This document shows positions 16,076 to 61,900 of a stretch of 64,000 nt of DNA, one piece after another (position 1 is the stretch's first letter; each line of letters opens with the position of its first letter). The position numbers were made by a program, and so were the translations under genes. The notes beneath the pieces were generated by a model that was not told where the DNA came from, made no database searches, and worked only from the letters and a program-made list of their open reading frames with translations. The stretch is from Patescibacteria group bacterium (lineage in GTDB: Bacteria; Patescibacteriota; Kazan-3B-28; UBA10110): positions 201,832 through 265,831 of the forward strand of contig JBAZXK010000002.1 of assembly GCA_041659905.1 (NCBI GenBank). The letters are read 5' to 3'.

Positions 16076-17515
16076 ATGGCGAAGCAGTTAAAATTATTCG
16101 GGAAACCAACTAAGAAGACGAAATCTAGCGTTAAAACTAAAGGTCGCCCCGATGTCCCGAACCCAAGGGTTTCGGGAAGCGGGGCCAATGTCGCAAAGCG
16201 ACATTGGCATTGGACGGATTATTTTGTGTCCAGTCCACTTAAAGTTACTCCTAAGAAACAGCGGAAAGTTTCCGTGGTTTTTGTGATGATGAGCGGGGGA
16301 GTCGATTCTTCGGCCACGGCCTATCTCCTAAAAGAGCAAGGATTTGAGGTGGTGGGAGTGTATATGAAAAATTGGTCTTTCCCGATCAAGCGGATTCAGG
16401 AGTGTCCGCTGTACCAGGATTATAAAGATATGGTCAAGGTGTGCAAATTCCTCAAGATTCCTTATCAGGTCTGGAGTTTTGAAAAGGATTACCGCAAACG
16501 GGTAATTGATCCGTTTTTTGTGGGTTATCAGGAGGGATTAACTCCTAATCCGGATGTGATGTGCAACACCGAGATTAAATTTGATGATTTCCTGAAAAAA
16601 GCGTTAAAGATGGGGGCGGATTATATCGCCACTGGCCACCATATCAGGAGTCGTTGTGCCGATCCCAAGTCTTTTAAACTCCTTTCTTCTGTCATCCCGA
16701 CAACTTCTTCTGTCATCCCGACAACTTCTTCTGTCATCCCGACCGGAGTGGAGGGATCTAAATCTGGCGTGAGAGATTCCTCGATTTCACTCGGAATGAC
16801 AAAAAGTAAAGCTCGGAATGACGGCAACAACAAAATCTGTAAGGATTACCAGCTTTTAAAGGGCAAAGACCCCATTAAAGATCAAACCTATTTTGTTTAC
16901 CGGCTTACCCAGGAACAGCTCAAGAAATGTATCTTCCCGGTAGGGGATTATGTCAAAACTGATCTTCGGGCCATGGCGAAAAAGGTAAATTTGCCGACTG
17001 CCGAGCGGCGCGATAGCCAAGGCATCTGTTTTATTGGGAATATTAATGTGAAATCCTTTCTGAAGACTAAACTACCCGAAAAAGAAGGGGATATCGTGAC
17101 TAAAGAGGGCAAAAAGATCGGTAAACATGAAGGGGCTTGGTTTTATACGATTGGACAAAGGAGGATTGAAGGCCTGTCTGGCATGGTGAAGCCAATGTAT
17201 GTCATCGGCAAAAACATGAAGAAAAACCAGGTGATTGTAGGTGATGACAAAGATACCTACAATAAAATCGCTCGGCTATCCAACTTCCATTTAATTAATA
17301 ATAAAACCGTTAAACCGATCGATTTGATGGGGATTATCTTAACTGCTAAATCCCGCTATACGCCGGAAACCAGTCGAGGCAAACTGGGTAAAGACAAAAA
17401 GGGTTACTTTTTTGAATTTGTGAAGCCGGAACGAGCCATCACCCCCGGCCAATCCCTGGTTCTCTATAAAGGCGAAATTTGCCTGGGCGGCGGTATTATT
17501 ACTAGTGCTAGATAG
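16076..17515 (+). CDS. mnmA: tRNA 2-thiouridylase MnmA, with a Lys-rich N-terminal extension and a ~55-aa internal insertion
   Basis: VVFVMMSGGVDSS (PP-loop), TPNPDVMCN, ADYIATGHH, KDQTYFVY, DSQGICFIG. Start uncertain: alternative GTG near 16268 gives a canonical N-terminus. Confidence 0.8.
   Translation: MAKQLKLFGKPTKKTKSSVKTKGRPDVPNPRVSGSGANVAKRHWHWTDYFVSSPLKVTPKKQRKVSVVFVMMSGGVDSSATAYLLKEQGFEVVGVYMKNWSFPIKRIQECPLYQDYKDMVKVCKFLKIPYQVWSFEKDYRKRVIDPFFVGYQEGLTPNPDVMCNTEIKFDDFLKKALKMGADYIATGHHIRSRCADPKSFKLLSSVIPTTSSVIPTTSSVIPTGVEGSKSGVRDSSISLGMTKSKARNDGNNKICKDYQLLKGKDPIKDQTYFVYRLTQEQLKKCIFPVGDYVKTDLRAMAKKVNLPTAERRDSQGICFIGNINVKSFLKTKLPEKEGDIVTKEGKKIGKHEGAWFYTIGQRRIEGLSGMVKPMYVIGKNMKKNQVIVGDDKDTYNKIARLSNFHLINNKTVKPIDLMGIILTAKSRYTPETSRGKLGKDKKGYFFEFVKPERAITPGQSLVLYKGEICLGGGIITSAR
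16686..16800. repeat. 21-bp tandem x3 (cttctgtcatcccgacaactt) followed by a 68-bp palindromic element, all in-frame within mnmA
   Basis: Encodes SSVIPTTSSVIPTTSSVIPTGVEGSKSGVRDSSISLGMT. Element: gtcatcccgaccggagtggagggatct...agattcctcgatttcactcggaatgac. Confidence 0.65.
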
Positions 17516-17548
17516 AAAAACCGCCTCCATGGAAGGAGGGGTTTTGTG
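17516..17548 (+). terminator. Terminator after mnmA
   Basis: ccgcctccatggaaggaggggttttgt. Confidence 0.5.
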
Positions 17549-17601
17549 GCGATAAACGCCAATAACTTATGCGTGCACTCTGATAGTGGTGTTACCCTGT
17601 A

Positions 17602-17877
17602 TCACGATTTCGTCAACGCATTTGTTGCCAGACCCACTAGGACAATCGCTACCAGTATCGGCCAGAAGAGTAAACAGTACGCCATGGCTTCCCGGGGTCT
17701 GAATTTATAATCCGATGAGGATAAAATGCATGCCATGTCTTCAGCCAAACATTCCCAGAAAAGTGAAGGGCTGACTGTGTCTGCGTACCTATAGTCACAT
17801 AGGGGAGGCAGTGTGAGTGCACAGGCAACGCCAGCGATAAGGTACAACATTCCTATTATTATTCCGCTTTCAATCAT
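17602..17877 (-). CDS. Small Cys-containing membrane protein (hypothetical)
   Basis: Two hydrophobic helices. No motif recognised. Confidence 0.3.
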   Translation of the reverse strand: MIESGIIIGMLYLIAGVACALTLPPLCDYRYADTVSPSLFWECLAEDMACILSSSDYKFRPREAMAYCLLFWPILVAIVLVGLATNALTKS

Positions 17878-18139
17878 TATTGGTCTCCTTTCATTCGCGG
17901 TATGACTTATTTAAATCATAGGAGCCGATGTGTGTCAACTTTGCAATATAAGAGGTGATATTGCTTTTTTGACATGTTTTGCGTATAATCAGGTGGACAA
18001 AATTTAAGATTTACGCATCCTTAATGGCACCCAAAATGTCAGATAAGTCATATTGGAATTATCCGCTCCCAGAGCTGATAATTTATGATGTCTGTAACAA
18101 ATTGGACGGTTCTATCGTTATATCTAACGTAAGAGTTTA

Positions 18140-18688
18140 ATGCCCATTTCAAACTTACATCCTGCATCTACAAAGACCCCCGAGCACTTAGTGCTTCGGG
18201 CAGCCAAGGGTGACAACAAGGCCTTTGGCGCCATTTATGAACTTTGGGCAGAACATATTTACCGCTTCGTTTATTTAAAAACTAGAGACGAAAGTAGCGC
18301 TGAAGACATTACAGCCGAAGTTTTCTTAAAGGTTTGGAAGGGGATTAAAACTTTCAAGCCGAAAGCAGACACTAAATTTTCCACTTGGCTGTTTGCCATC
18401 GCTCGAAATAGTGTGATCGATTACTATCGCACCACGCGCCAAACTATCCCTTTCGACAATTTACCAGAATTGGTTGATATCGAAGGGGAGGTGGATTTGT
18501 ACCCGGAACGAGGTCGGCTCCAGCAAGCGTTGGAAGAACTTAAGCCGGAATACAAACAAGTTTTGGTGCTGCGGTATGTCGAAGATCAGCCCATTGCCAA
18601 AGTTGCCCAAATTATGAAGAAAAAAGAGGGCAATGTTCGTGCTTTGACGCATCGAGCTCTTCAAGAGCTCAAAACACGTTTATCTTAG
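18140..18688 (+). CDS. RNA polymerase sigma-70 factor, ECF subfamily
   Basis: Region 2 (AEHIYRFVYLKT...DITAEVFLKVW) and region 4 HTH (QVLVLRYVEDQPIAKVAQIM). Confidence 0.8.
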   Translation: MPISNLHPASTKTPEHLVLRAAKGDNKAFGAIYELWAEHIYRFVYLKTRDESSAEDITAEVFLKVWKGIKTFKPKADTKFSTWLFAIARNSVIDYYRTTRQTIPFDNLPELVDIEGEVDLYPERGRLQQALEELKPEYKQVLVLRYVEDQPIAKVAQIMKKKEGNVRALTHRALQELKTRLS

Positions 18689-18764
18689 TCCAGACTCGCT
18701 CTGCTCTAAAGCAGAGGTAGCGATTGCGCCGAGAAGGGTTAGGAAACTGGGGGAATTCCCGTTT

Positions 18765-18822
18765 GTCATTCCGACCGCAGTGGAGGAATCTCATGAGATC
18801 CTTCGACTCCGCTCAGGATGAC
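18765..18822. repeat. Palindromic element, copy 2
   Basis: gtcattccgaccgcagtggaggaatctcatgagatccttcgactccgctcaggatgac. Confidence 0.65.
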
Positions 18823-18914
18823 GGCGCAAGGAATACGCCGTCAGTTAATAATTTATCAGATATTAAAGAGCTTATTAAGTTAATAAGCAGTTATTTTTAT
18901 TAATAATTCTTTCT

Positions 18915-18972
18915 GTCATTCCGACCGTAGTGGAGGAATCTCATGAGATCCTTCGACTCCGCTCAGGATGAC
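18915..18972. repeat. Palindromic element, copy 3 (near-identical to copy 2)
   Basis: gtcattccgaccgtagtggaggaatctcatgagatccttcgactccgctcaggatgac. Ends 15 nt before the next CDS. Confidence 0.65.
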
Positions 18973-18986
18973 AGATGTAAGGTAAT

Positions 18987-20087
18987 ATGTCTTCTGTTAA
19001 TTTTGAACAACTAGAAGCTGAGCTCCGTACCCTAGGTGAAAACAAGGGGATTTTAACTACTAATAAAAAACAAGCTATCCGCGACCGGGTTTTCCAATCT
19101 ATTGGGCAAGTTGAGTTAGCTGATGCCATCGCGACCGGAGAAGCCAAAGCCGGATTAGCAGTGTCTTTGAAGCATCTGCAACAAGCGCTGATCCCTCATC
19201 GTTTGTCTTTTTCCATGCCAGTCACTGCCGCTGTGGTTATGGTGGTTTTCTTGGGTTCATTAGTAACTGGGGTAGCTGCTCAAAGTTCTCGGCCGGGTGA
19301 TGTTTTATTCGCCATGAAAAAAGTTTTTCAAGCGATTGAAATAGCAGCGGTAGCAGATCCGATCAAGAAAGCGGAAGTTAGCTTAAATATCGCAGGTGAG
19401 CGGTTGCAATATCTCGAGGAATCCGTGGGACAAGAAGAAGCTTTACATATTGTATTAAAAGAAAGTCAATCAGCCTTAGTCAGCGCCAAAGAAACCCTGA
19501 AAAAAGCCCAGGAAAGCGGAGACACGGCTAATGCCACAGCTTTATTGGATAAATTTAATAGTTTATTAGCCGATCAAAAGGTAATTTTAGAAGATATTGA
19601 AAAAACTACCCCGAGTGATGATGTGAAACAAACAATTGTAGCCATCAGGGATGTCATTGCATCTGATAAAGAGATTGAATCTGGAAAATTAACAGAATTA
19701 TCTGACAAAAATGCGACTACAACGGGTTCTATAGTGCCGAAAGCAATTACTAAACCCAATAATCAACCACTGACATTGAATATTGCTTTAAGTGGCTTCC
19801 AGACACTAGCGGGACGTATTAGTACTGCCGGTGGACAACCCACTATCTTCTTTAATGGTAACCAATACGTCATCATTGTGTCATCCCCTGTGTCGATGGA
19901 CCAATATATCGGTTCTAGCAATGTGGCTTTGAGTGGAGTAGTCAAAGATGGGTATTTCACAGTTTATCGGGTAGTCATTAATGGTACAGTTTTAGCTGAT
20001 ATTATTCCTCAAACAACCAATCCAGTTAGCACAGATGGAAATCCAGAAAATTCTAACCAATCTGATCAGCCAGTCAACCAGGAATAA
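18987..20087 (+). CDS. Putative membrane-anchored anti-sigma factor (hypothetical)
   Basis: Immediately downstream of the ECF sigma gene. Single TM (VTAAVVMVVFLGSLVTGVAA) and a long extracytoplasmic domain. Confidence 0.4.
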   Translation: MSSVNFEQLEAELRTLGENKGILTTNKKQAIRDRVFQSIGQVELADAIATGEAKAGLAVSLKHLQQALIPHRLSFSMPVTAAVVMVVFLGSLVTGVAAQSSRPGDVLFAMKKVFQAIEIAAVADPIKKAEVSLNIAGERLQYLEESVGQEEALHIVLKESQSALVSAKETLKKAQESGDTANATALLDKFNSLLADQKVILEDIEKTTPSDDVKQTIVAIRDVIASDKEIESGKLTELSDKNATTTGSIVPKAITKPNNQPLTLNIALSGFQTLAGRISTAGGQPTIFFNGNQYVIIVSSPVSMDQYIGSSNVALSGVVKDGYFTVYRVVINGTVLADIIPQTTNPVSTDGNPENSNQSDQPVNQE

Positions 20088-20096
20088 CACTCGTTT

Positions 20097-20165
20097 GTCA
20101 TCCCGACCGTAGCGGAGGGATCTGAGGTTTTTACTGTTAGATTCCTCGACTTCGCTCGGAATGAC
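20097..20165. repeat. Palindromic element, copy 4
   Basis: gtcatcccgaccgtagcggagggatctgag...agattcctcgacttcgctcggaatgac. Confidence 0.65.
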
Positions 20166-20353: not shown

Positions 20354-23300
20354 ATGAATAATGCTTTCAAAAAGATGACGCGGGCAATTGCTTGGTTGGC
20401 AACAGCCAGCTTAACCGTGGGTTTCGCTATGATGCCCAGTGGTGCAGTTGCTCAAACGGTCTATAAGTATGAATGGGTCCGCCAGAGTGGCACCATTAGC
20501 GCAGATCAGTTAGCTCATGAATACCAAGGGGTAACCGCGGGCCAAACTATTCCTCTGTCGTTAACGATGATTAACCGGTCTGGCACAACCATCAAAGGCA
20601 AATCGGCTTTGCCGGTTGGCACCAAGCAAGTTCCGGTCGGTGTCTGGGGCATTGGTACTCAGAACCCACAGGACGGCACGCCTTCCTTCTTAGATTTGTC
20701 CAGCTTTGTGCTGAACAATAACCGGTTTGTTTACTATGACGGAGCCGATGTTCCTAACGGAGGTGAAATTACCTTCACTTGGAATATTAAAATGGCTGCG
20801 AGTCTCTCTAACGGGACTTACAAATTATATGTAAGACCAGTCAGTGAGTTCTTGGCCTGGACTCGTCAGGTCAAGAATGGTATCACTTTACCGGGTACCA
20901 ATTCTGATATCTTCTGGCAGTTTGTAGTGGGCAGTGGTGTTTCTACTGCTCCTACTGGCGGTTTGTCGATCGTTTTAGCGGGCGACACCCCAGCTGCTTC
21001 TAGCATTGCCGATGCCGGGCAAGCTAACTTCACTAAATTCACCATGACCCCTGCATCCGGAGCCACTGTTTTGGTTAATCAGCTCTTTGTGATGCGTGAC
21101 GGTCTTTCTACTGATACTCAATTAGAAAATGTTAAGCTGTTAAATGCTGACGGAGTACAAATTGGGAGTACAGCTGGTGGATTTAATGCTGATCATCGGG
21201 CTCAAATCTTTATCAATCCAGCGTTGAGTTTAACTGGTTCGCAGTCCTTCTATCTAAGGGCCGGAGTGGTTAACGCTACTGATGCTGGAGTTACCTTTAG
21301 ATTAGGTCTTGCCACTAACGATGCGGTGGTGTCTAATGCCACATCAGTTACTGGTGCACCAGTCTGGGGTAACTTTATGACGTGCGTACAGGTAGCCATT
21401 GGTACTATTACTGTCACGGAAGATGGTTCTATCTCTGACAGCACCCCAGATGTGGGTGATAAGGATGTCATTTTGAATACTTTCAAATTGACAGCCGGTT
21501 CTGTCGAAGGATTTGTAGTTGACAGAATTACTGTCCTCAAGGCTGGTACTGCCGAAACGGCCGATGCTACCAATATTGAGTTGTGGGATGTGACCAATAA
21601 TAAAAGCTTGGGAGAACAAGCCGCTTGGACATCAGATGGTAAAGCTTCTTGGGCGGTCAATCTTGCCTTAGGCAAGGGCGATACCATTCGCTTACGGGTA
21701 CAAGCAGACATCGTTGACGGTGTCGGCTTAACCATAAACTGCGACATCGCTGATGGCAGTGATTACTTGGTCTTCGCTAGGGGCACAACCTATGGATTCT
21801 ACGTTACTCCTAGTGCTTCCTGGACAGCCGATGCTGGCACAGGTGGAACTAACAATGCTGGTCAAGGTGACAAGAACCAAACCATTAACTCAGGTTCCGT
21901 CACCGTTTCCAAGAGTGCTCTCACTCCCGCCACTGGTAATATTGCCATAGCTGATAGTCAGCTCCTGGCGGTATTTGCCTTTGACGTTAAGGGTGAGCAG
22001 GTCAGAATTAGCGCGGTGCACGTTGATGCAGCCGTGACTGATGTCAGCGCTGGCACTCCAGCGGCTGATGCTACCGATCTCACTAATGTTCGTTTAGTTG
22101 ATATGGCGACCGGAAATATTCTGTCTGGACCAGTTGATGGTACAGCAGACAGTACTGATCCGGATGAGGAATTAGACTTTACTAATACCTTTACTTTGCC
22201 AGTCGGCGTTAGTAATGTTGGCGTAAAAGGTCGTTGGGTGCTGCTTCTGGAACTGATGGTTTTGAAGCTACTGACACCCTTTCCTTCTCGATTGATGCTG
22301 CTGGTCAGGTATCCGTTAAGGGTATTATTACCAACAACACAATTACTCCTACCATCTCTGCTGCTTCTAGCAACACCTTGACTGTCAAGGCAGGGTCAAT
22401 GACTATTGAAACCTTAGGCCAGCCGGCTACAGGAAGTATAGTGGTCAATACTCAAGATATGGTAGTAGGTACTTATGCATTCAACGCGGTAGCGTCAGGT
22501 GAAGACCTGATCGTATCTGCCTTCACCGTAACTGACGATATGGATGCAACTACTGGAGAAAGCGACGACTTTGTCAACTGGCAATTGTGGGCCGATTTAA
22601 CTTCTGGCACCACTTCTCCTCGCGGAGATGTCTATGAAACGCCAATCTCTGGTACGGAAAATCCGACCAGTGATGCTGCTGACAGTACTGATACCCAAGC
22701 ATTCACCTTCACTACTCCTATAACCGTGCTTAAGGGCACGAGTGTAAGAGTTGTGTTAGTGGCTGATGTGGCTTCTGGTGCAACCGCTAATGGTACTCAT
22801 ATCTTTGAGACTGCTAGCGCCACTTTTGCTACCGTAACCGGGAAAGATACCGGAACGGATGTCGCTGAAGGTAGTGCTGGTTTGTCAATCAACGCTACTT
22901 TGACGATTGCCGCCAATGGTAGTTTGACCAGCGCATTAGCTGCCAGCACTCCTGTTACTGGTCTCATGGTGGCGAGCGCAATCACTACTTTAGGGGCTTT
23001 TGATCTGATTGCTTCTAATGAAGCCTACACAGTGACCAAGCTTTCCTTGGATTTCACAGCTGGTTATGACTCATTGGATACAGTAAAAATCACTTATCCA
23101 ACCAAGACAGGAACAGATACTCGCGAAATCTCACTTTCCACTGCCGCCGCTACCTTCGACAACATCAACATGTATGTGCCGAAGAACGGTCGCGCTACCT
23201 TCACTGCTACTGGTGTTGGTAAAAAGGTGGGTACTAGTGGTACAGGCGGAACCTTCGACGACACAATTACTTGTATCTTCGACAACTCTGCTGCCGGCGA

Positions 23301-31732: not shown

Positions 31733-31802
31733 GTCATCCTGAACTTCCCACTTCCGTCATCCTGAACTTCCCACTTCCGTCATCCTGAACTAGTTTCAGG
31801 AT
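31733..31802. repeat. 23-bp tandem (gtcatcctgaacttcccacttcc) x~2.6 ending in the palindrome atcctgaactagtttcaggat
   Basis: Read directly. Overlaps the 3' end of the GIY-YIG gene. Confidence 0.6.
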
Positions 31803-32080
31803 CTCCCGAAGAGGTCTTCCCACTTTGGGTTGTTACTCTCAATTAGATTAATCTTCCACTCCCGATGCCAACGCTTTAATTGCTTCTCTCTTTGAATAGC
31901 TTCAGCAATAGTTGGGTATTCTTCCGAGTAAACTAATTTATTGAGATTGTATTTTCTCGTGAAAGAATCTGCCTGGCTGATCAAGTGTTGTTCTGATCTT
32001 TTCATCAGTTGGCTAGTAACACCGATATACAAGATACCCTTTGGCTTATTGGTGAGGATATAAACATAACCTTTCTTCAT
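31796..32080 (-). CDS. Small GIY-YIG nuclease family protein (YhbQ-like)
   Basis: KGYVYILTNKPKGILYIGVTSQLMKRSEQH matches the GIY-YIG motif. Confidence 0.75.
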   Translation of the reverse strand: MKKGYVYILTNKPKGILYIGVTSQLMKRSEQHLISQADSFTRKYNLNKLVYSEEYPTIAEAIQREKQLKRWHREWKINLIESNNPKWEDLFGRS

Positions 32081-32095
32081 AACCCCATTATAGAG

Positions 32096-32236
32096 ATCCT
32101 GAAATAAATTCAGGATGACGAAAAGGAGATATCCTGAAATGTAGAGAAATAAATCCTGGACCCTCCTACACTGAAACTACGGACGGGCAGGCAAGTCAGG
32201 ATGACGAAGTTAGGGATACTTCGTCAGTTTAGGATG
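32096..32236. repeat. Palindromes of the same family upstream of the GIY-YIG gene
   Basis: atcctgaaataaattcaggatgac, and gtcaggatgacgaagttagggatacttcgtcagtttaggatg. Confidence 0.55.
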
Positions 32237-52610: not shown

Positions 52611-53411
52611 ATGAAAATAGGGATTTTTGATTCCGGCTTAGGAGGCTTGTTGCTCACGCGCAGCCTGGTTGAAGCGTTACCGCAATACGATTACGTTTAT
52701 TTAGGCGATACTGCTCGAGTGCCTTATGGTAATCGTTCTCAGGCCGCTGTCTATGAATTTACCAAGCAAGCCGTTGAGTATTTATTTAACCAGGATTGCC
52801 AACTAATTATTTTAGCTTGCAATACTGCCTCAGCCGAGGCCTTGCGTAGAATCCAGCAAGAATATCTATCAAAACATTATCCAGAGCGGCGGGTATTGGG
52901 AGTGATTATCCCAACTGCCGAAGCGACTGTAGCCGAACATCCCCAAAAAATAGGCGTATTAGCGACTACCAGCACGGTTAATTCAGGTACATATCTTAGA
53001 GAACTGCATAAATTGGATTCGCATCTTCAGATTGTTCAACAAACCGCCCCCTTGCTGGTGCCTTTGATTGAAAATGATGGTTTACAATGGATCGAGCCTA
53101 TCTTAGAGAGCTACTTAAAGCCGCTGCGAGAAGCGCATATAAATACTCTGATTTTAGGCTGCACTCATTATCCTTTCATTAAGGATTTAATCAGACAAAA
53201 ACTGCCGACCGAGGTGAAAGTGTTATCGCAAGATGAAATTATTCCAGATAAACTGCGTGATTACCTGGAGCGTCATCCCGAAATTGATCAGTTGCTGGCC
53301 AAAGGCGGGGAGAGGAAATATCTAGTCACCGATTTAACCGAAAACATCCAAACTCTCGCCAAGGATTTATTTGGGTCAGAAATTATATTGGAACTAGTCA
53401 GTTTAGAATAA
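52611..53411 (+). CDS. murI: Glutamate racemase
   Basis: KIGIFDSGLGGLLL, YVYLGDTARVPYG, LACNTASAEAL, LGCTHYP. Confidence 0.85.
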   Translation: MKIGIFDSGLGGLLLTRSLVEALPQYDYVYLGDTARVPYGNRSQAAVYEFTKQAVEYLFNQDCQLIILACNTASAEALRRIQQEYLSKHYPERRVLGVIIPTAEATVAEHPQKIGVLATTSTVNSGTYLRELHKLDSHLQIVQQTAPLLVPLIENDGLQWIEPILESYLKPLREAHINTLILGCTHYPFIKDLIRQKLPTEVKVLSQDEIIPDKLRDYLERHPEIDQLLAKGGERKYLVTDLTENIQTLAKDLFGSEIILELVSLE

Positions 53412-56334: not shown

Positions 56335-56411
56335 TGGTCGGGGTGCCGAGATTCGAACTCGGGACCTCACGCCCCCTAGACGTGCGCCATAAACCACTAG
56401 GCTACACCCCG
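56335..56411 (-). tRNA. tRNA-Pro, anticodon loop CUAGGGG (anticodon AGG if the stem is canonical; A34 is unusual)
   Basis: Reverse complement cggggtgtagcctagtggtttatggcgcacgtctagggggcgtgaggtcccgagttcgaatctcggcaccccgacca. Acceptor stem identical to tRNA-Pro(CGG). Confidence 0.75.
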
Positions 56412-56651
56412 TATTTTCAATATATCTCTCAGAAGTCTATGGCCAGAACCTTGTTTGAAGTATGTCTCTCTTTGCTTGGCCTGGGCTCGGGTATCATAAT
56501 CTTCTTGATAAATTATCTTCCATGGACCGCCTATTTTCTTAGTATAACTAGATATTCCCTTGTTGTGAGCGTCCAGGCGATTACTTAGATTAGCTGTCTG
56601 GCCAATATATATCTTACCCTGGCTATTGGCAATGACATAGACATAATACAT
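56397..56651 (-). CDS. Small GIY-YIG nuclease family protein (YhbQ-like); 3' end overlaps the tRNA-Pro 5' end
   Basis: MYYVYVIANSQGKIYIGQTANLSNRLDAHN. Confidence 0.7.
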   Translation of the reverse strand: MYYVYVIANSQGKIYIGQTANLSNRLDAHNKGISSYTKKIGGPWKIIYQEDYDTRAQAKQRETYFKQGSGHRLLRDILKIRGVA

Positions 56652-58503: not shown

Positions 58504-58595
58504 GCTCGTTAGTTGTCATGCTGAATTTATTTCAGCATCTCCAGGGAGAGATCCTGAATCCGAACTTGGCCTTATGGACAGTCGGTCCAGGATGA
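58504..58595. repeat. Palindromes of the GTCATCC/GGATGAC family
   Basis: gtcatgctgaatttatttcagcat, and atcctgaatccgaacttggccttatggacagtcggtccaggatgac. Confidence 0.45.
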
Positions 58596-58726
58596 CGAAT
58601 AGGGAACAGAATGCCGGGCTCAAAGGATGTATGTCAAAGGACTGAATTTCTGACTAAATATTATATCAAAAATGGGCAGAAGTCAAGAGTTTTTGGCTCT
58701 GGGAGAGGATAATTTATATACAATAA

Positions 58727-58775
58727 CCCCTCCTTTCCTCCCCTTATATTAAGGGGAGGTTGGGTGGGATGGTTT
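58727..58775. repeat. Partial third copy (5' hairpin + G-rich block) of the structured element
   Basis: cccctcctttcctccccttatattaaggggaggttgggtgggatgg. Confidence 0.4.
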
Positions 58776-58945
58776 TATGTTGACAAGGAGAGTGATTTGT
58801 AGTATAATAATATAATTACTTTATAGAGTTCCTTGCGGAAACAAACATCAAAATGGCTCCAAAAAGCAAAAAGAATAACCTCTTGTCGGTAACCCCTCGA
58901 CTACACTCGGGGAATAAAAAATTATACGATCCTGGACAAGCCAGG

Positions 58946-61900
58946 ATGACGGGCAGAGTAAGTAGGGTGCTGTCGTGGGTGGTGATGGCAGTGTTGATTA
59001 TTCAGGTGGTGTTTCCGGGAGGATTGTTTGATTTTGCTGTCCAAAGAACTTATGCTGCTACAACCTTAGGCATATCGGCGCCCATTGCTTCTACAGAGTG
59101 GGTTATTGGGGAAAATAATACCATATTATGGACAACTGTCGGGGATGTTCCAAGTTATTTCAAATTGTATTATTCAACCGACAGTGGAGGCAATTGGGCT
59201 TCAATAGATGATTATGAGGCCTATACAGGTAGTCCTCAGTTCTATCTTTGGACAACGCCGGTAGTGGCTAACGCAGGATCACAAACACATCAGGTTAAGG
59301 TTGAGGCGTACGATGCCGGGGATGTTTTATTGGCGACTAAAAGTACTGTCTCTTACATAATTGATTATGGGCCACTAGATAGTTTTGTTGTAGATGTTGA
59401 ACCTCAAATAAGCGAGGGATTGTCGGTTTATTTAGATGCTACAGCCAAAGACCAATATGATAATACTATTTTGAATTTCTCTGATTCAGGTATGGTTACT
59501 CAGGGCTACGTGAGGATTGATGGTATGGGAGTGCCTAATGTCATGGTTACTGTAAACGGTGATTCAAACTTAACAAACGGAGATGGCCTTTTTAGTATTG
59601 TTCAGCCTCAACCTTCTGGATGGTCTTGGGCTAATGGACATGCTCAAATTGTTACTTATTTCACTTATGATGAAGGTAATATTGGAGATGGAGGTGGAAC
59701 AATTAGTTATGATTTAAACGCCAAAGGGAATGATACCACTAATGTAGTAGCTAATCTAGTTCTTATGGATGCGCCGACATCGGCTTCCAGTTTTGTAATC
59801 GGCTCGCCTGGGAACAGCATCACTTTTCGGGCAGGAGGAGAAACAAGTATTGACCATTTGGATTTGGCGTATTCGCCAAACAATGGAGGTAATTATTACA
59901 CGATTGAAAATGGAGTGGCGGATGGAGCGATGCCACAGACTTACAGTTGGATTGTTAACAACGATACTCCGGGCGCGCAATGGAAAGTCCGCGTGCAATC
60001 CTACGATGCTACGGATACCCTGATTGCGACCGGGACCTCGGATGCCTTTACGGTGGCCTACGGTGCTGTGGCCAGTTTTACTGTAGCTGCTCCAGAAACA
60101 GCTAACATCAACCAATATTTTAGTTTGACGGTAACTGCTAAAGATACATATGGAAATACCATTACTACATTTAGTGAAGCCACAGCGATCGGGTCTTTGC
60201 CCAGCAATATCACGCCAACCACTATCGGCAACGGTACCACTACTGGCACTTGGTCGAATGGAGTAGTCACATATAACGGTTATCAAATCAGCGGGACAGG
60301 AGTACAAACCATTACCGCGACTTATGGCAGTGCGACCGGATCTGATACTATGAACATCATCGGTGGGGGATCTACTACCGTGATTGGTTGTACGGAATCA
60401 ATGGATAAAAAAGCCCCGGCTTCGGCGGTAGTAGGGATTTTAGATGCCAATAACATTATCCAACCCATGCCGGCCACTACTTACAAAACTCCCATGACAG
60501 TAGTGGCGGAAGCAATCGATCCCGACCAAGGTTTGGTGGCTGATGGTTGTCCTTTAGGTACGGGTGTAGCTGCAATTGATTTGCAACTTAAAAAAGGCGC
60601 CGGTGAGTATATTGCCCAAAGCGGGGGAATGTATATGGTCCCACCTGCCAATGCCAAACCCGGTTATGATTATTACAAATGGATTATAGATATTCCGGCA
60701 AAGGAATTTACGACTTATTATTTCTATTCGTTAGCCACTGATTATGATGGCAACGCCGAAACCGCCCCGAGCATGCCAGGTTATGATACGTTGACGCTAG
60801 TGGATATGCGCCGGCCATATGTGATTAGTACCAATCCGCTTAATAGCCAAACCGGCGTGGCGAATAATATGCCCATCCAAGTGGTATTTAATATGCCCAT
60901 GAATACTGCTTCGGTCTGGAGTGCCTTTAGTATTACTAAGCAAGGCGCTGTAGTGCCGGTGGATTTGCGTTGGTCAGCTGTGTGGTCTAATAACAACCAA
61001 GTAGCAAGTTTCCGTCATGCCACCGTATTCGATTACAGTGGAGTTTACACAGTAAAAATCGATCCGGATATTGCTACCAATGCGAGCGGAGCGCCTTTGG
61101 ATATTACCAACCCTGATGCAGCTCCCATGCCATTCTCGTTTACGGTAGCGGCGGGTCCACAAACCAACCGACCTTATTTAGCCACTTCAACTAAAGTAGT
61201 TAATTTAGCGATTGCACCGGTCGGAAGTTTACTTACTTACACTATCGTTTTGCGTAATACCGGCACGGCCACGGCCAATGTAGTGTTTACTGATCCTATT
61301 CCTGTCAATACAACTTACGATAATATGGTGACCAATGCAGTTTATGACGCGGTGGCTAAGACTATCCGTTGGAGCGGTACTATCGCCCGGGGTCGAACTT
61401 GGACCATTACCTTCCGGGTCAAGATTAATACGGGAGTGGCTAATGGTACTGTTATCGAGAATAAAGCTACCTTCAGTGATGGAGCTGGCAATACCTTTGA
61501 CCGGTATGCCAACACCACCGTTAACACCGTGCCAACTTCCAAGGTCATTGGCAATTTAGTGGACGGAACTCTAATCACCCCGATGCAGGGCTATACTTAC
61601 GCCTCGCCGTTAACGGTGGTGGCGCAAGCTCCCAATGCCTCTTCCTTGCTCACGGTAAATTTGTATTACCGAACCAGCGCCACGGGCGATACTGTGTATA
61701 AGAATTTCGGGCCAGGTACAAAATATCAAGATTTGCCGGATGGCTCCGCTTATTACAAATGGGATTTCCCATTTGCTGAGGGAATCAGTTTGACCTATTA
61801 TTTTTACACCCGAGCTACCGATAGTTATGGCAATATCGAAAATGCTCCCAGCAGCTATGATGCCTATACTCGGGTGAATACGATTCGTCCGTATATTACT

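Follow-up and report, generated by a model that had tools for sequence, protein, structure and literature searches.

In a 64,000-nt stretch of the genome of a Patescibacteria group bacterium (contig JBAZXK010000002.1 of assembly GCA_041659905.1; the whole stretch is called the window below) we analyzed a family of short palindromic elements, which are very probably SRMs, i.e. hairpin sites of the Ssn GIY-YIG nuclease similar to the Neisseria repeat NTS, arranged as convergent pairs. This assignment draws on the anatomy of the elements, the covariation within their stems, their association with ssn genes, a correspondence between stem subtypes and Ssn subfamilies and the turnover of the elements at fixed sites. 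An earlier note on this DNA had described four full copies of a family resembling MITEs (miniature transposable elements with inverted repeats), and these copies are indeed present at 16733-16800, 18765-18822, 18915-18972 and 20097-20165, all in the same orientation and with copies 2 and 3 being near-identical (98% over 59 nt, with 1/59 nt differing). Shorter relatives that had been proposed along with them could be confirmed at 31733-31806, 32095-32205, 58515-58596 and 58928-58950. Counting both strands, the window has 17 occurrences of the motif GTCATYCYGA, compared to 0.48 matches expected from 100 dinucleotide shuffles (maximum 4), and a generic finder for the arrangement 'GTC + 5-nt stem ... 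stem + C' also gave 17 matches, the average of 100 Markov simulations being 1.3. All paired occurrences found by this generic search are convergent, the plus strand coming first and the minus strand second. Two matches were rejected as chance, namely GTCATYCYGA at 53272, which lies within a murI-like open reading frame (ORF) and is without a hairpin partner, and the generic match at 42323.

Another assembly of this strain (L121, ENA ERZ27249449; 0 mismatches over 8.5 kb) contains the same elements, so that an artefact of a single assembly can be dismissed. They are also not confined to the window, as a search in 185,579 species genomes with a pattern leaving the pair positions 6-23, 8-21 and 11-18 free revealed the motif in at least 120 loci that span at least 15 phyla; the matches listed include Firmicutes, Bacteroidota, Acidobacteriota, Verrucomicrobiota, Planctomycetota, Chloroflexota, Proteobacteria, Patescibacteria and further phyla. 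Across these phyla 18% of the motif instances are located inside a long open frame, compared to 72% of random positions; the elements are mostly intergenic, yet not kept out of genes.

Each element had been regarded as a single palindrome with terminal inverted repeats, but it is instead composed of two self-folding hairpins of ~27 nt in convergent orientation, which gives one correctly oriented site per strand with the GTCAT ends facing outward and, in the full copies, a spacer of 4-15 nt between the arms. Aligning both strands of the four copies led to the arm consensus GTCAT-YCY-GA-S-YGNAR-Y-S-GA-RGR-AT-CT, read on the strand of the respective arm and laid out as (T)GTCAT, an AT-YCY/RGR-AT stem broken by a tandem G.A/A.G step, an extra S-S pair, a small loop and C(T). 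GTCAT forms the 5' start of 8/8 arms and of all short relatives and is preceded by a T in 73% of 138 instances, while C(T) directly follows the stem on its 3' side in every arm, so that all arms end with ...AT-C(T). The pairing within the arms of the window is complete, with 56/56 Watson-Crick pairs (eight arms with the pairs 4-25, 5-24, 6-23, 7-22, 8-21, 11-18 and 12-16). Between both arms of an element only 20-21 of 27 positions agree, and the differences are compensated in the pairs 6-23, 8-21 and 11-18, as exemplified by C11-G18 in a left arm and G11-C18 in the right one or by ATTCC/GGAAT and ATCCT/AGGAT. Since both partners of an intra-arm pair are changed together, the structural unit is the arm. 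The same pairs are maintained in 138 instances taken from the motif matches listed, which cover at least 15 phyla: pair 11-18 is Watson-Crick in all of them (118 GC and 20 CG), pair 8-21 is complementary in 137 and pair 6-23 in 136, the other two being GT. This covariation is strong evidence for a hairpin of 27 nt that contains a tandem G.A/A.G step. In the window at least three stem subtypes coexist, along with hybrids of them. The four full copies belong to the GA/GA subtype and the hairpins next to the ssn gene of the window have a fully paired inner stem of the GA/TC subtype (GTCATCCTGAAC...TTTCAGGATC), the GA/TC type folding as DNA at z -4 to -5.

This anatomy closely resembles that of a system described for Neisseria meningitidis, in which the 28-nt repeat NTS, CGTCATTCCCGCGMAVGCGGGAATCYRG, is bound and cut, only as single-stranded DNA (ssDNA), by SsnA, a single-domain GIY-YIG protein of 94 aa with Y6, Y17 and E64 as the residues that were mutated (Chenal et al., Nat Commun 2025, PMC11893778). 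Binding of the NTS hinges on the C after the palindrome and cutting on the 3 nt before the palindrome, with the cut being 3 nt upstream of the NTS according to the oligonucleotide lengths given by the authors. The same work describes ssn homologs across phyla that are flanked by NTS-like SRM hairpins, and lists Rickettsia as one of the genomes having over 300 SRMs (PMC11893778). The elements of the window share with NTS and SRMs the oriented hairpin, the 5' GTCAT, the C right after the stem, the occurrence in multiple copies clustered around genes and the gene for a 94-aa single-domain GIY-YIG protein bracketed by the repeat on both sides. They differ in their stems, which are AT-richer or carry the tandem G.A step, in the dominance of convergent pairs without a gene, in the presence of several stem subtypes in one window, in their host, as the phylum Patescibacteria is not mentioned in PMC11893778, and in one pair that is translated inside an essential-type enzyme, whereas 2% of the NTS are found inside genes (PMC11893778). 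The kind of system is the same, and the convergent gene-less pairs, arrays of half-sites, an in-frame insert in MnmA (tRNA 2-thiouridine synthase) and a correspondence between Ssn residue 72 and the stem go beyond the published description. The exact NTS core GTCATTCCCGCGAAGGCGGGAATC is present in the syntenic relatives L131 (6160-6187) and L132 (1801-1828), paired with SRMs of other subtypes.

The hairpins around 31796-32080 had been listed only as shorter relatives in the earlier note, which overlooked the nuclease gene between them; its statement that the window has no transposase holds for the 30 ORFs that were scanned. A protein identical to the Ssn encoded here is annotated at NCBI in a Patescibacteria metagenome-assembled genome (MAG; P0121). 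In our Ssn alignment (A4) Y7, Y18, R28, H32, E65 and N84 are invariant, and the spacing of Y7, Y18 and E65 equals that of Y6, Y17 and E64 in SsnA from N. meningitidis. The AlphaFold2 model (pLDDT 86) has three strands plus helices and places residues 70, 72, 75 and 78 at the junction of the last two helices. The protein shares 52-59% identity with proteins that have the exact NTS core of the Neisseria type at their flanks (L150, L204 and others), and Ssn of the window type is found with 60-64% identity in Flavobacteriaceae and Rickettsiaceae (63% to P0145 from Rickettsiaceae). A search against NCBIfam with the Ssn protein gave only sub-threshold matches and no relatives were found among the viral_contigs. 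A second small GIY-YIG protein of 84 aa is encoded at 56397-56651 on the minus strand (Pfam 2.7e-16); it belongs to another subfamily, has no SRM hairpins nearby and the 3' end of its gene overlaps the tRNA gene at 56338-56411.

In order to relate hairpins and nuclease genes we analyzed 80 metagenomic loci encoding ssn homologs, 70 of which have a hairpin within 200 nt. It is located upstream on the same strand in 47 loci, downstream and inverted in 53 and in both positions in 35, compared to 14 and 27 loci for the control orientations. These values (88% with a hairpin and 44% with hairpins on both sides) are similar to the 71% and 42% published (PMC11893778). Starting from the motif instead, four or five of the 120 loci listed encode an ssn homolog, mostly within ~150 nt (L005, L101, L098), and L005 shows the arrangement SRM-ssn-inverted SRM. 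Arms of the GA/GA type directly adjoin ssn homologs in L005, L101, L098, L133, L213 and L214, and the flank of the ssn gene of the W-R-R-D-K-K type in L214 agrees with the right arm of copies 2 and 3 in 26/26 positions. The motif of the hairpin at 58515 likewise flanks ssn homologs in L137, L171 and L206 and is also found inside MnmA in L130. The association can even be seen in the proteins: 38 of the 120 closest homologs end with D-P/A/S-E-T-S-S-G, and such a DPETSSG-like tail indicates that the ORF runs into the inverted SRM, where GGATGAC provides the stop codon. Eleven close homologs of the L133-type Ssn end with ...RSFD..., and P0246 ends exactly with SRSFDSAQDD, the translation of the right arm of copies 2 and 3. 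Odd peptide tails in predicted proteins, such as DPETSSG, RSFDSAQDD and VIPTGVEGS, are thereby explained, which is also useful for annotation.

A comparison of the Ssn residue after the invariant Trp71 with the stem type in 87 loci showed that H72 goes along with a GA/TC stem in 45 of 55 cases, N72 with the CG/CG stem of the Neisseria-type NTS in 14 of 19, K72 with TG/CA in 6 of 16 and R72 or V72 with GA/GA in 8 of 15. Position 72 has the highest mutual information with the stem type of all 94 positions (z 12.6), followed by positions 70, 75 and 78. We therefore regard residue 72 as a candidate specificity determinant, a hypothesis that might serve as a starting point to predict or re-engineer the specificity of ssDNA cleavage and that we keep as such because shared ancestry inflates correlations of this kind. 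The window Ssn (W-H-R-x-W-K) matches the short GA/TC hairpins at 31779, 32119 and 58515, and a second Ssn subfamily with W-[R/V]-R-x-K-K is predicted to be the cognate of the GA/GA elements.

From the analogy to N. meningitidis a model can be proposed for the window. Whenever the DNA becomes single-stranded, during replication, repair or as incoming transforming DNA, each arm would fold alone, and Ssn would bind the folded arm and nick it ~4 nt 5' of GTCAT. Nicking could then modulate the recombination of the flanked segment. The order SRM, ssn and inverted SRM at 31779-32119 represents the gene-carrying form of this architecture and the 58-69-bp elements the gene-less pairs, with binding, cleavage and the biological role being taken over from the Neisseria system. 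Among the alternatives offered in the earlier note a protein-binding site comes closest to this model, but not in the form of a restriction or methyltransferase half-site, for which neither a gene nor a pattern was found; the methyltransferase ORFs of the window encode S-adenosylmethionine-dependent enzymes of the small-molecule or protein type within a glycosyltransferase cluster. All features are compiled in Table 1.

Table 1: Positions of SRM hairpins, half-site arrays and the genes hosting or flanked by them in the window.
Feature	Position	Strand	Remarks
mnmA, host of copy 1	16076..17515	+	insert between ...ATGHHIRS and QLLKGKDPIKDQTYF, ~residues 193-258
half-site array, 21-bp unit TTCTTCTGTCATCCCGACAAC	16684..16732	+	5' half of SRM stem + 10-nt spacer; translated as SSVIPTT repeats
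copy 1 left arm, SRM, GA/GA subtype, C11-G18 form	16733..16759	+	7/7 intra-arm pairs
copy 1 right arm, SRM, G11-C18 form	16774..16800	-	7/7 pairs; T12-A16 compensated vs C-G in other arms
extra right-end half-site GTCATTCCGAGCTTT	16808..16822	-	stutter of minus-strand 5' end; pattern match 16813-16822(-)
copy 2 left arm, SRM, GA/GA subtype	18765..18791	+	77 nt past stop codon of the extracytoplasmic function (ECF) sigma gene; 7/7 pairs
copy 2 right arm, GTCATCCTGAGCGGAGTCGAAGGATC(T)	18796..18822	-	7/7 pairs; 26/26 identical to ssn flank of L214
copy 3 left arm	18915..18941	+	generic finder; 7/7 pairs
copy 3 right arm	18946..18972	-	ends 15 nt ahead of anti-sigma ATG (18987)
copy 4 left arm	20097..20123	+	10 nt past anti-sigma (DUF5667) stop codon
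copy 4 right arm, GTCATTCCGAGCGAAGTCGAGGAATCT	20139..20165	-	variant second commonest across phyla
half-site array, 23-bp unit GTCATCCTGAACTTCCCACTTCC	31733..31778	+	outer side of SRM downstream of ssn; Tandem Repeats Finder
SRM hairpin, GA/TC, GTCATCCTGAACTAGTTTCAGGATCTC	31779..31805	+	convergent with ssn, holds ssn stop codon; DNA fold -6.1 kcal/mol, z -4.0
ssn, 94-aa single-domain GIY-YIG nuclease, W71-H72-R73-E-W75-K76 subfamily	31796..32080	-	Pfam GIY-YIG 2.4e-17, residues 3-78
SRM hairpin, GA/TC, GTCATCCTGAATTTATTTCAGGATCTC	32093..32119	-	directly upstream of ssn, same strand; DNA fold -6.2 kcal/mol, z -4.8
degenerate second SRM on the upstream side of ssn, GTCATCCTGA...TTTCAGGAT	32125..32205	-	long loop insert; pattern match 32196-32205(-); read by eye
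SRM hairpin, GA/TC subtype, GTCATGCTGAATTTATTTCAGCATC	58515..58541	+	left arm of convergent pair; DNA fold -6.8 kcal/mol, z -5.1
right arm of 58515 pair, expanded loop	58550..58596	-	generic finder
solo SRM hairpin, GTCATCCTGGCTTGTCCAGGATC, GG/CC subtype	58928..58950	-	DNA fold -6.3 kcal/mol, z -4.0

Several observations weigh against the assignment as SRMs. The pattern published for SRMs, HGTCWYN(0-2)YYVSBRHN(0-5)WNVSBRGN(0-2)RNCYNB, matches none of the window hairpins and only one each in L131 and L132. The GA step and an inner stem rich in A/T are responsible for this failure, which places the window subtypes outside the described consensus. Single GA/GA arms reach only -1.6 to -5.5 kcal/mol in a nearest-neighbour DNA model, with z not being significant, and the element scores better as one long hairpin (-26 to -34 kcal/mol in an RNA fold); with such weak arm energies, folding by arms rests on the covariation and not on energy. 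A PDB search with Ssn gave only a weak match to UPF0213 BH0048 (E 3.6e-4), and the correlation between residue and stem is confounded by the shared ancestry of the subfamilies. Finally, a tblastn search found no ssn gene of the W-[R/V]-R-x-K-K type in the 64-kb window but only the unrelated GIY-YIG gene at 56397-56651, so the four full copies may be orphans.

The last point leads to an alternative for these four pairs, according to which they are inert fossils of a lost ssn cassette, harmless and neither bound nor cut by anything in the cell. Besides the missing gene it can be argued in its favour that two close relatives (L132/L215 and L133) have a W-[R/V]-R-x-K-K ssn gene between mnmA and the sigma gene, a place taken in the window by 473 nt of unrelated sequence with a minus-strand ORF of 91 aa, and that L132 has the MnmA insert as well (80% protein identity), so that this insert must be old. 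Against it speak the 56 stem pairs, none of which is broken, and the single difference between copies 2 and 3, which suggest a recent duplication or an ongoing constraint. The window also covers just 64 kb of the genome, leaving room for a cognate gene elsewhere, and some cross-specificity between Ssn homologs has been seen experimentally (PMC11893778). We consider inert remnants unlikely, and the four full copies are probably sites for a predicted nuclease whose gene is absent from the window and may lie elsewhere in the genome or have been lost. Searching with homologs of the L133 protein for an R72/K75-type ssn gene of the source strain we found relatives, none of them attributable to this strain.

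Among close relatives different hairpin pairs occupy the same places. The spacer of the sigma and anti-sigma genes consists of conserved blocks and, alternating with them, two variable slots that hold a different hairpin element in each relative, and L131 and L133 share their flanks up to GTCAT and ATGAC with different pairs in between. The comparison thus indicates a gain, loss or exchange of pairs at sites that stay fixed, which bears on the mobility of such elements, even if a mechanism for their spread can only be inferred. A mobile or recombinogenic family, as suggested in the earlier note, fits this turnover. The ssn gene itself may spread horizontally, as suggested by the 85% identity between the protein of an Omnitrophota MAG (P0244) and that from Patescibacteria (L133, 5463-5759) and by the 60-64% identity of window-type Ssn from Flavobacteriaceae and Rickettsiaceae. 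P0209 and P0199, both widely sampled Ssn proteins, were found in one genomic context each and gave no direct evidence of mobility, and Ssn is not known to have strand-transfer activity. As a rather speculative extension of the SRM assignment, a convergent SRM pair with or without ssn could itself be mobile, with copying or exchange taking place at existing hairpin sites through ssDNA nicking by Ssn, with its specificity residing largely in residues 70, 72, 75 and 78. Such a unit would be compatible with the pairs differing between relatives at two shared intergenic sites and in the MnmA loop, with the near-identity of copies 2 and 3, with half-site stutters at element ends in several phyla and with the 85% identity of ssn genes from Patescibacteria and Omnitrophota. 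If this were true, Ssn would be the engine of a GIY-YIG-driven, hairpin-targeted mobile family that seeds MITE-like pairs in at least 15 phyla, even within reading frames.

As noted earlier, one copy is located within a conserved coding gene, and copy 1 is indeed read in frame as part of the mnmA ORF. The ORF stays intact with the insert and the motifs of the catalytic region are conserved, while the HUP domain (Pfam tRNA_Me_trans) is split into two stretches at the insert. An alignment to the PDB showed that the respective loop has 66 residues in the window protein and 8 in solved structures. In 104 MnmA homologs from Patescibacteria the loop after ATGHH has a modal length of 11 residues (with slightly wider delimitation); it comprises 7-12 residues in about half of them and 28-91 in 36. 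These inserts show no relationship among themselves and for the most part are encoded by palindromes; the MnmA surface loop is a hotspot for in-frame insertion of hairpins. At the DNA level convergent SRM pairs of differing subtypes occupy the loop in L130, L131, L132 and L133, and other relatives have a different palindrome family, encoding PPLxRGGVGG peptides, or no insert. The repeated uptake of palindromic inserts is analogous to that of Rickettsia palindromic elements (RPEs), which reportedly are found in frame in conserved genes and kept as an extra surface peptide. Copy 1 and the RPEs share the in-frame palindromic repeat in a conserved gene whose ORF is kept intact; RPEs are ~100-150 bp in size, and the likeness meant here is one of architecture.

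The PPLxRGGVGG family is also represented in the window by a perfect palindrome at 58741-58763, CCTCCCCTTA-TAT-TAAGGGGAGG, which is distinct from the SRMs. Its peptides fill the MnmA loop in P0008, P0012, P0015, P0017 and P0022, and the palindrome occupies the sigma/anti-sigma slot in L215. Being present both at the MnmA loop and in the sigma slot, it seems to be a second hairpin family competing for the same sites.

Tandem triplications of 21-23 bp, which had also been pointed out before, were recovered by Tandem Repeats Finder as 2.9 units of 21 bp at 16684-16743 and 2.6 units of 23 bp at 31733-31791, with 100% matches in both cases. The array in mnmA has three units in the window and two units of 21 bp in L121 (2545-2586), the MnmA proteins having 479 and 472 aa, respectively; this difference is either a real length polymorphism in a coding gene or an assembly collapse. 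Stutters of this kind, consisting of the 5' half of an SRM and ~10 nt, are found repeatedly at the outer edge of complete hairpins from unrelated phyla, for instance in L098 (1980-2950, Dehalococcoidia), L005 (5060-5110), L132 (4571-4680), L150, L154, L186 and L205. The end of the ssn cassette in L005 carries a stutter like that at 16808..16822.

A function at the RNA level, as terminator or attenuator, mRNA-stabilising 3' hairpin or processing site, had been considered as well. Copies 2 and 4 are located just past stop codons and copy 3 just ahead of a start codon, and when the folding as RNA was checked the whole element proved to be stable (z -2.2 to -6.2). This stability did not translate into support for an RNA role, since the elements have no T tract, none of them was called by a terminator and promoter scan, a real bidirectional terminator follows mnmA at 17524-17539 and one copy lies within a translated gene. 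Rfam at gathering threshold detected only 7 tRNAs in the whole window and no family at the elements. The covariation moreover supports short arm hairpins on opposite strands, which fits a signal of the DNA strand and not of a transcript, and SsnA from N. meningitidis does not bind RNA (PMC11893778). An RNA stem-loop as the primary role is therefore quite improbable, with a secondary effect on the RNA being possible.

Classical MITEs, i.e. non-autonomous derivatives of DDE-type insertion sequences mobilised in trans via their terminal inverted repeats, are highly improbable. The small size, inverted ends, multiple copies and lack of coding capacity resemble Correia-type MITEs, and the same sites hold different elements in relatives. 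However, target-site duplications are absent, as the flanks of the four copies show no direct repeat, the supposed terminal repeats self-fold with compensatory changes within one arm and mismatch each other, and a solo arm exists at 58928-58950. The only gene consistently flanked by the elements encodes the 94-aa GIY-YIG nuclease and no cognate DDE transposase, a transposase domain being absent from the ORFs scanned. Repetitive extragenic palindromic (REP) sequences and bacterial interspersed mosaic elements (BIMEs), serviced by the REP-associated tyrosine transposase (RAYT, an IS200/IS605-type Y1 transposase), share the recognition of ssDNA hairpins, the conservation of four or five nucleotides on the 5' side, the convergent pairing and a gene bordered by its own repeats, a parallel already drawn by the Ssn authors (PMC11893778), but can hardly account for the elements given that the flanked gene encodes a GIY-YIG nuclease and not a HuH Y1 transposase in the window and in 87 further loci, and that the conserved 5' motif is GTCAT and not GTAG.

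Related in layout are the intergenic mosaic elements of Neisseria (NIMEs), which are bounded by dRS3 repeats. About half of the dRS3 copies are NTS (PMC11893778). Both systems have short segments bracketed by inverted hairpin repeats in intergenic clusters beside particular genes; here the spacers measure 4-15 nt compared to RS blocks of 50-150 bp, and the sequence subtype and the phylum differ. A puzzling repeat family from a genome of the candidate phyla radiation can now, with the high likelihood given above, be placed in the Ssn/SRM system, known from a single publication of 2025, and as the published SRM pattern misses whole subtypes the system is probably more widespread than reported.

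Some further observations concern the surroundings of the elements. The AT-rich 92 nt between copies 2 and 3 (18823-18914) include a block, CGTCAGTTAATAATTTATCAGATATT...AATAAGCAGTTATTTTTATTAA, that is kept in 4/4 aligned relatives and may be a promoter or regulatory region of the anti-sigma gene. The solo SRM at 58928-58950 lies within the first 33 codons (…YDPGQARMTG…) of an ORF starting at 58853 on the plus strand, which has more than 1715 codons and runs past the window end (beyond 63999); the ATG in GGATGAC of this SRM is a possible true start, directly ahead of a predicted membrane anchor (MTGRVSRVLSWVVMAVLII). Compared to L121 the window shows an indel of 1 base at 22232/22233, and the ORF at 20354-22381 stops at 675 aa, whereas that of L121 reaches at least 1257 aa; this large surface protein is subject either to a frameshift, to phase variation or to an error in sequencing.

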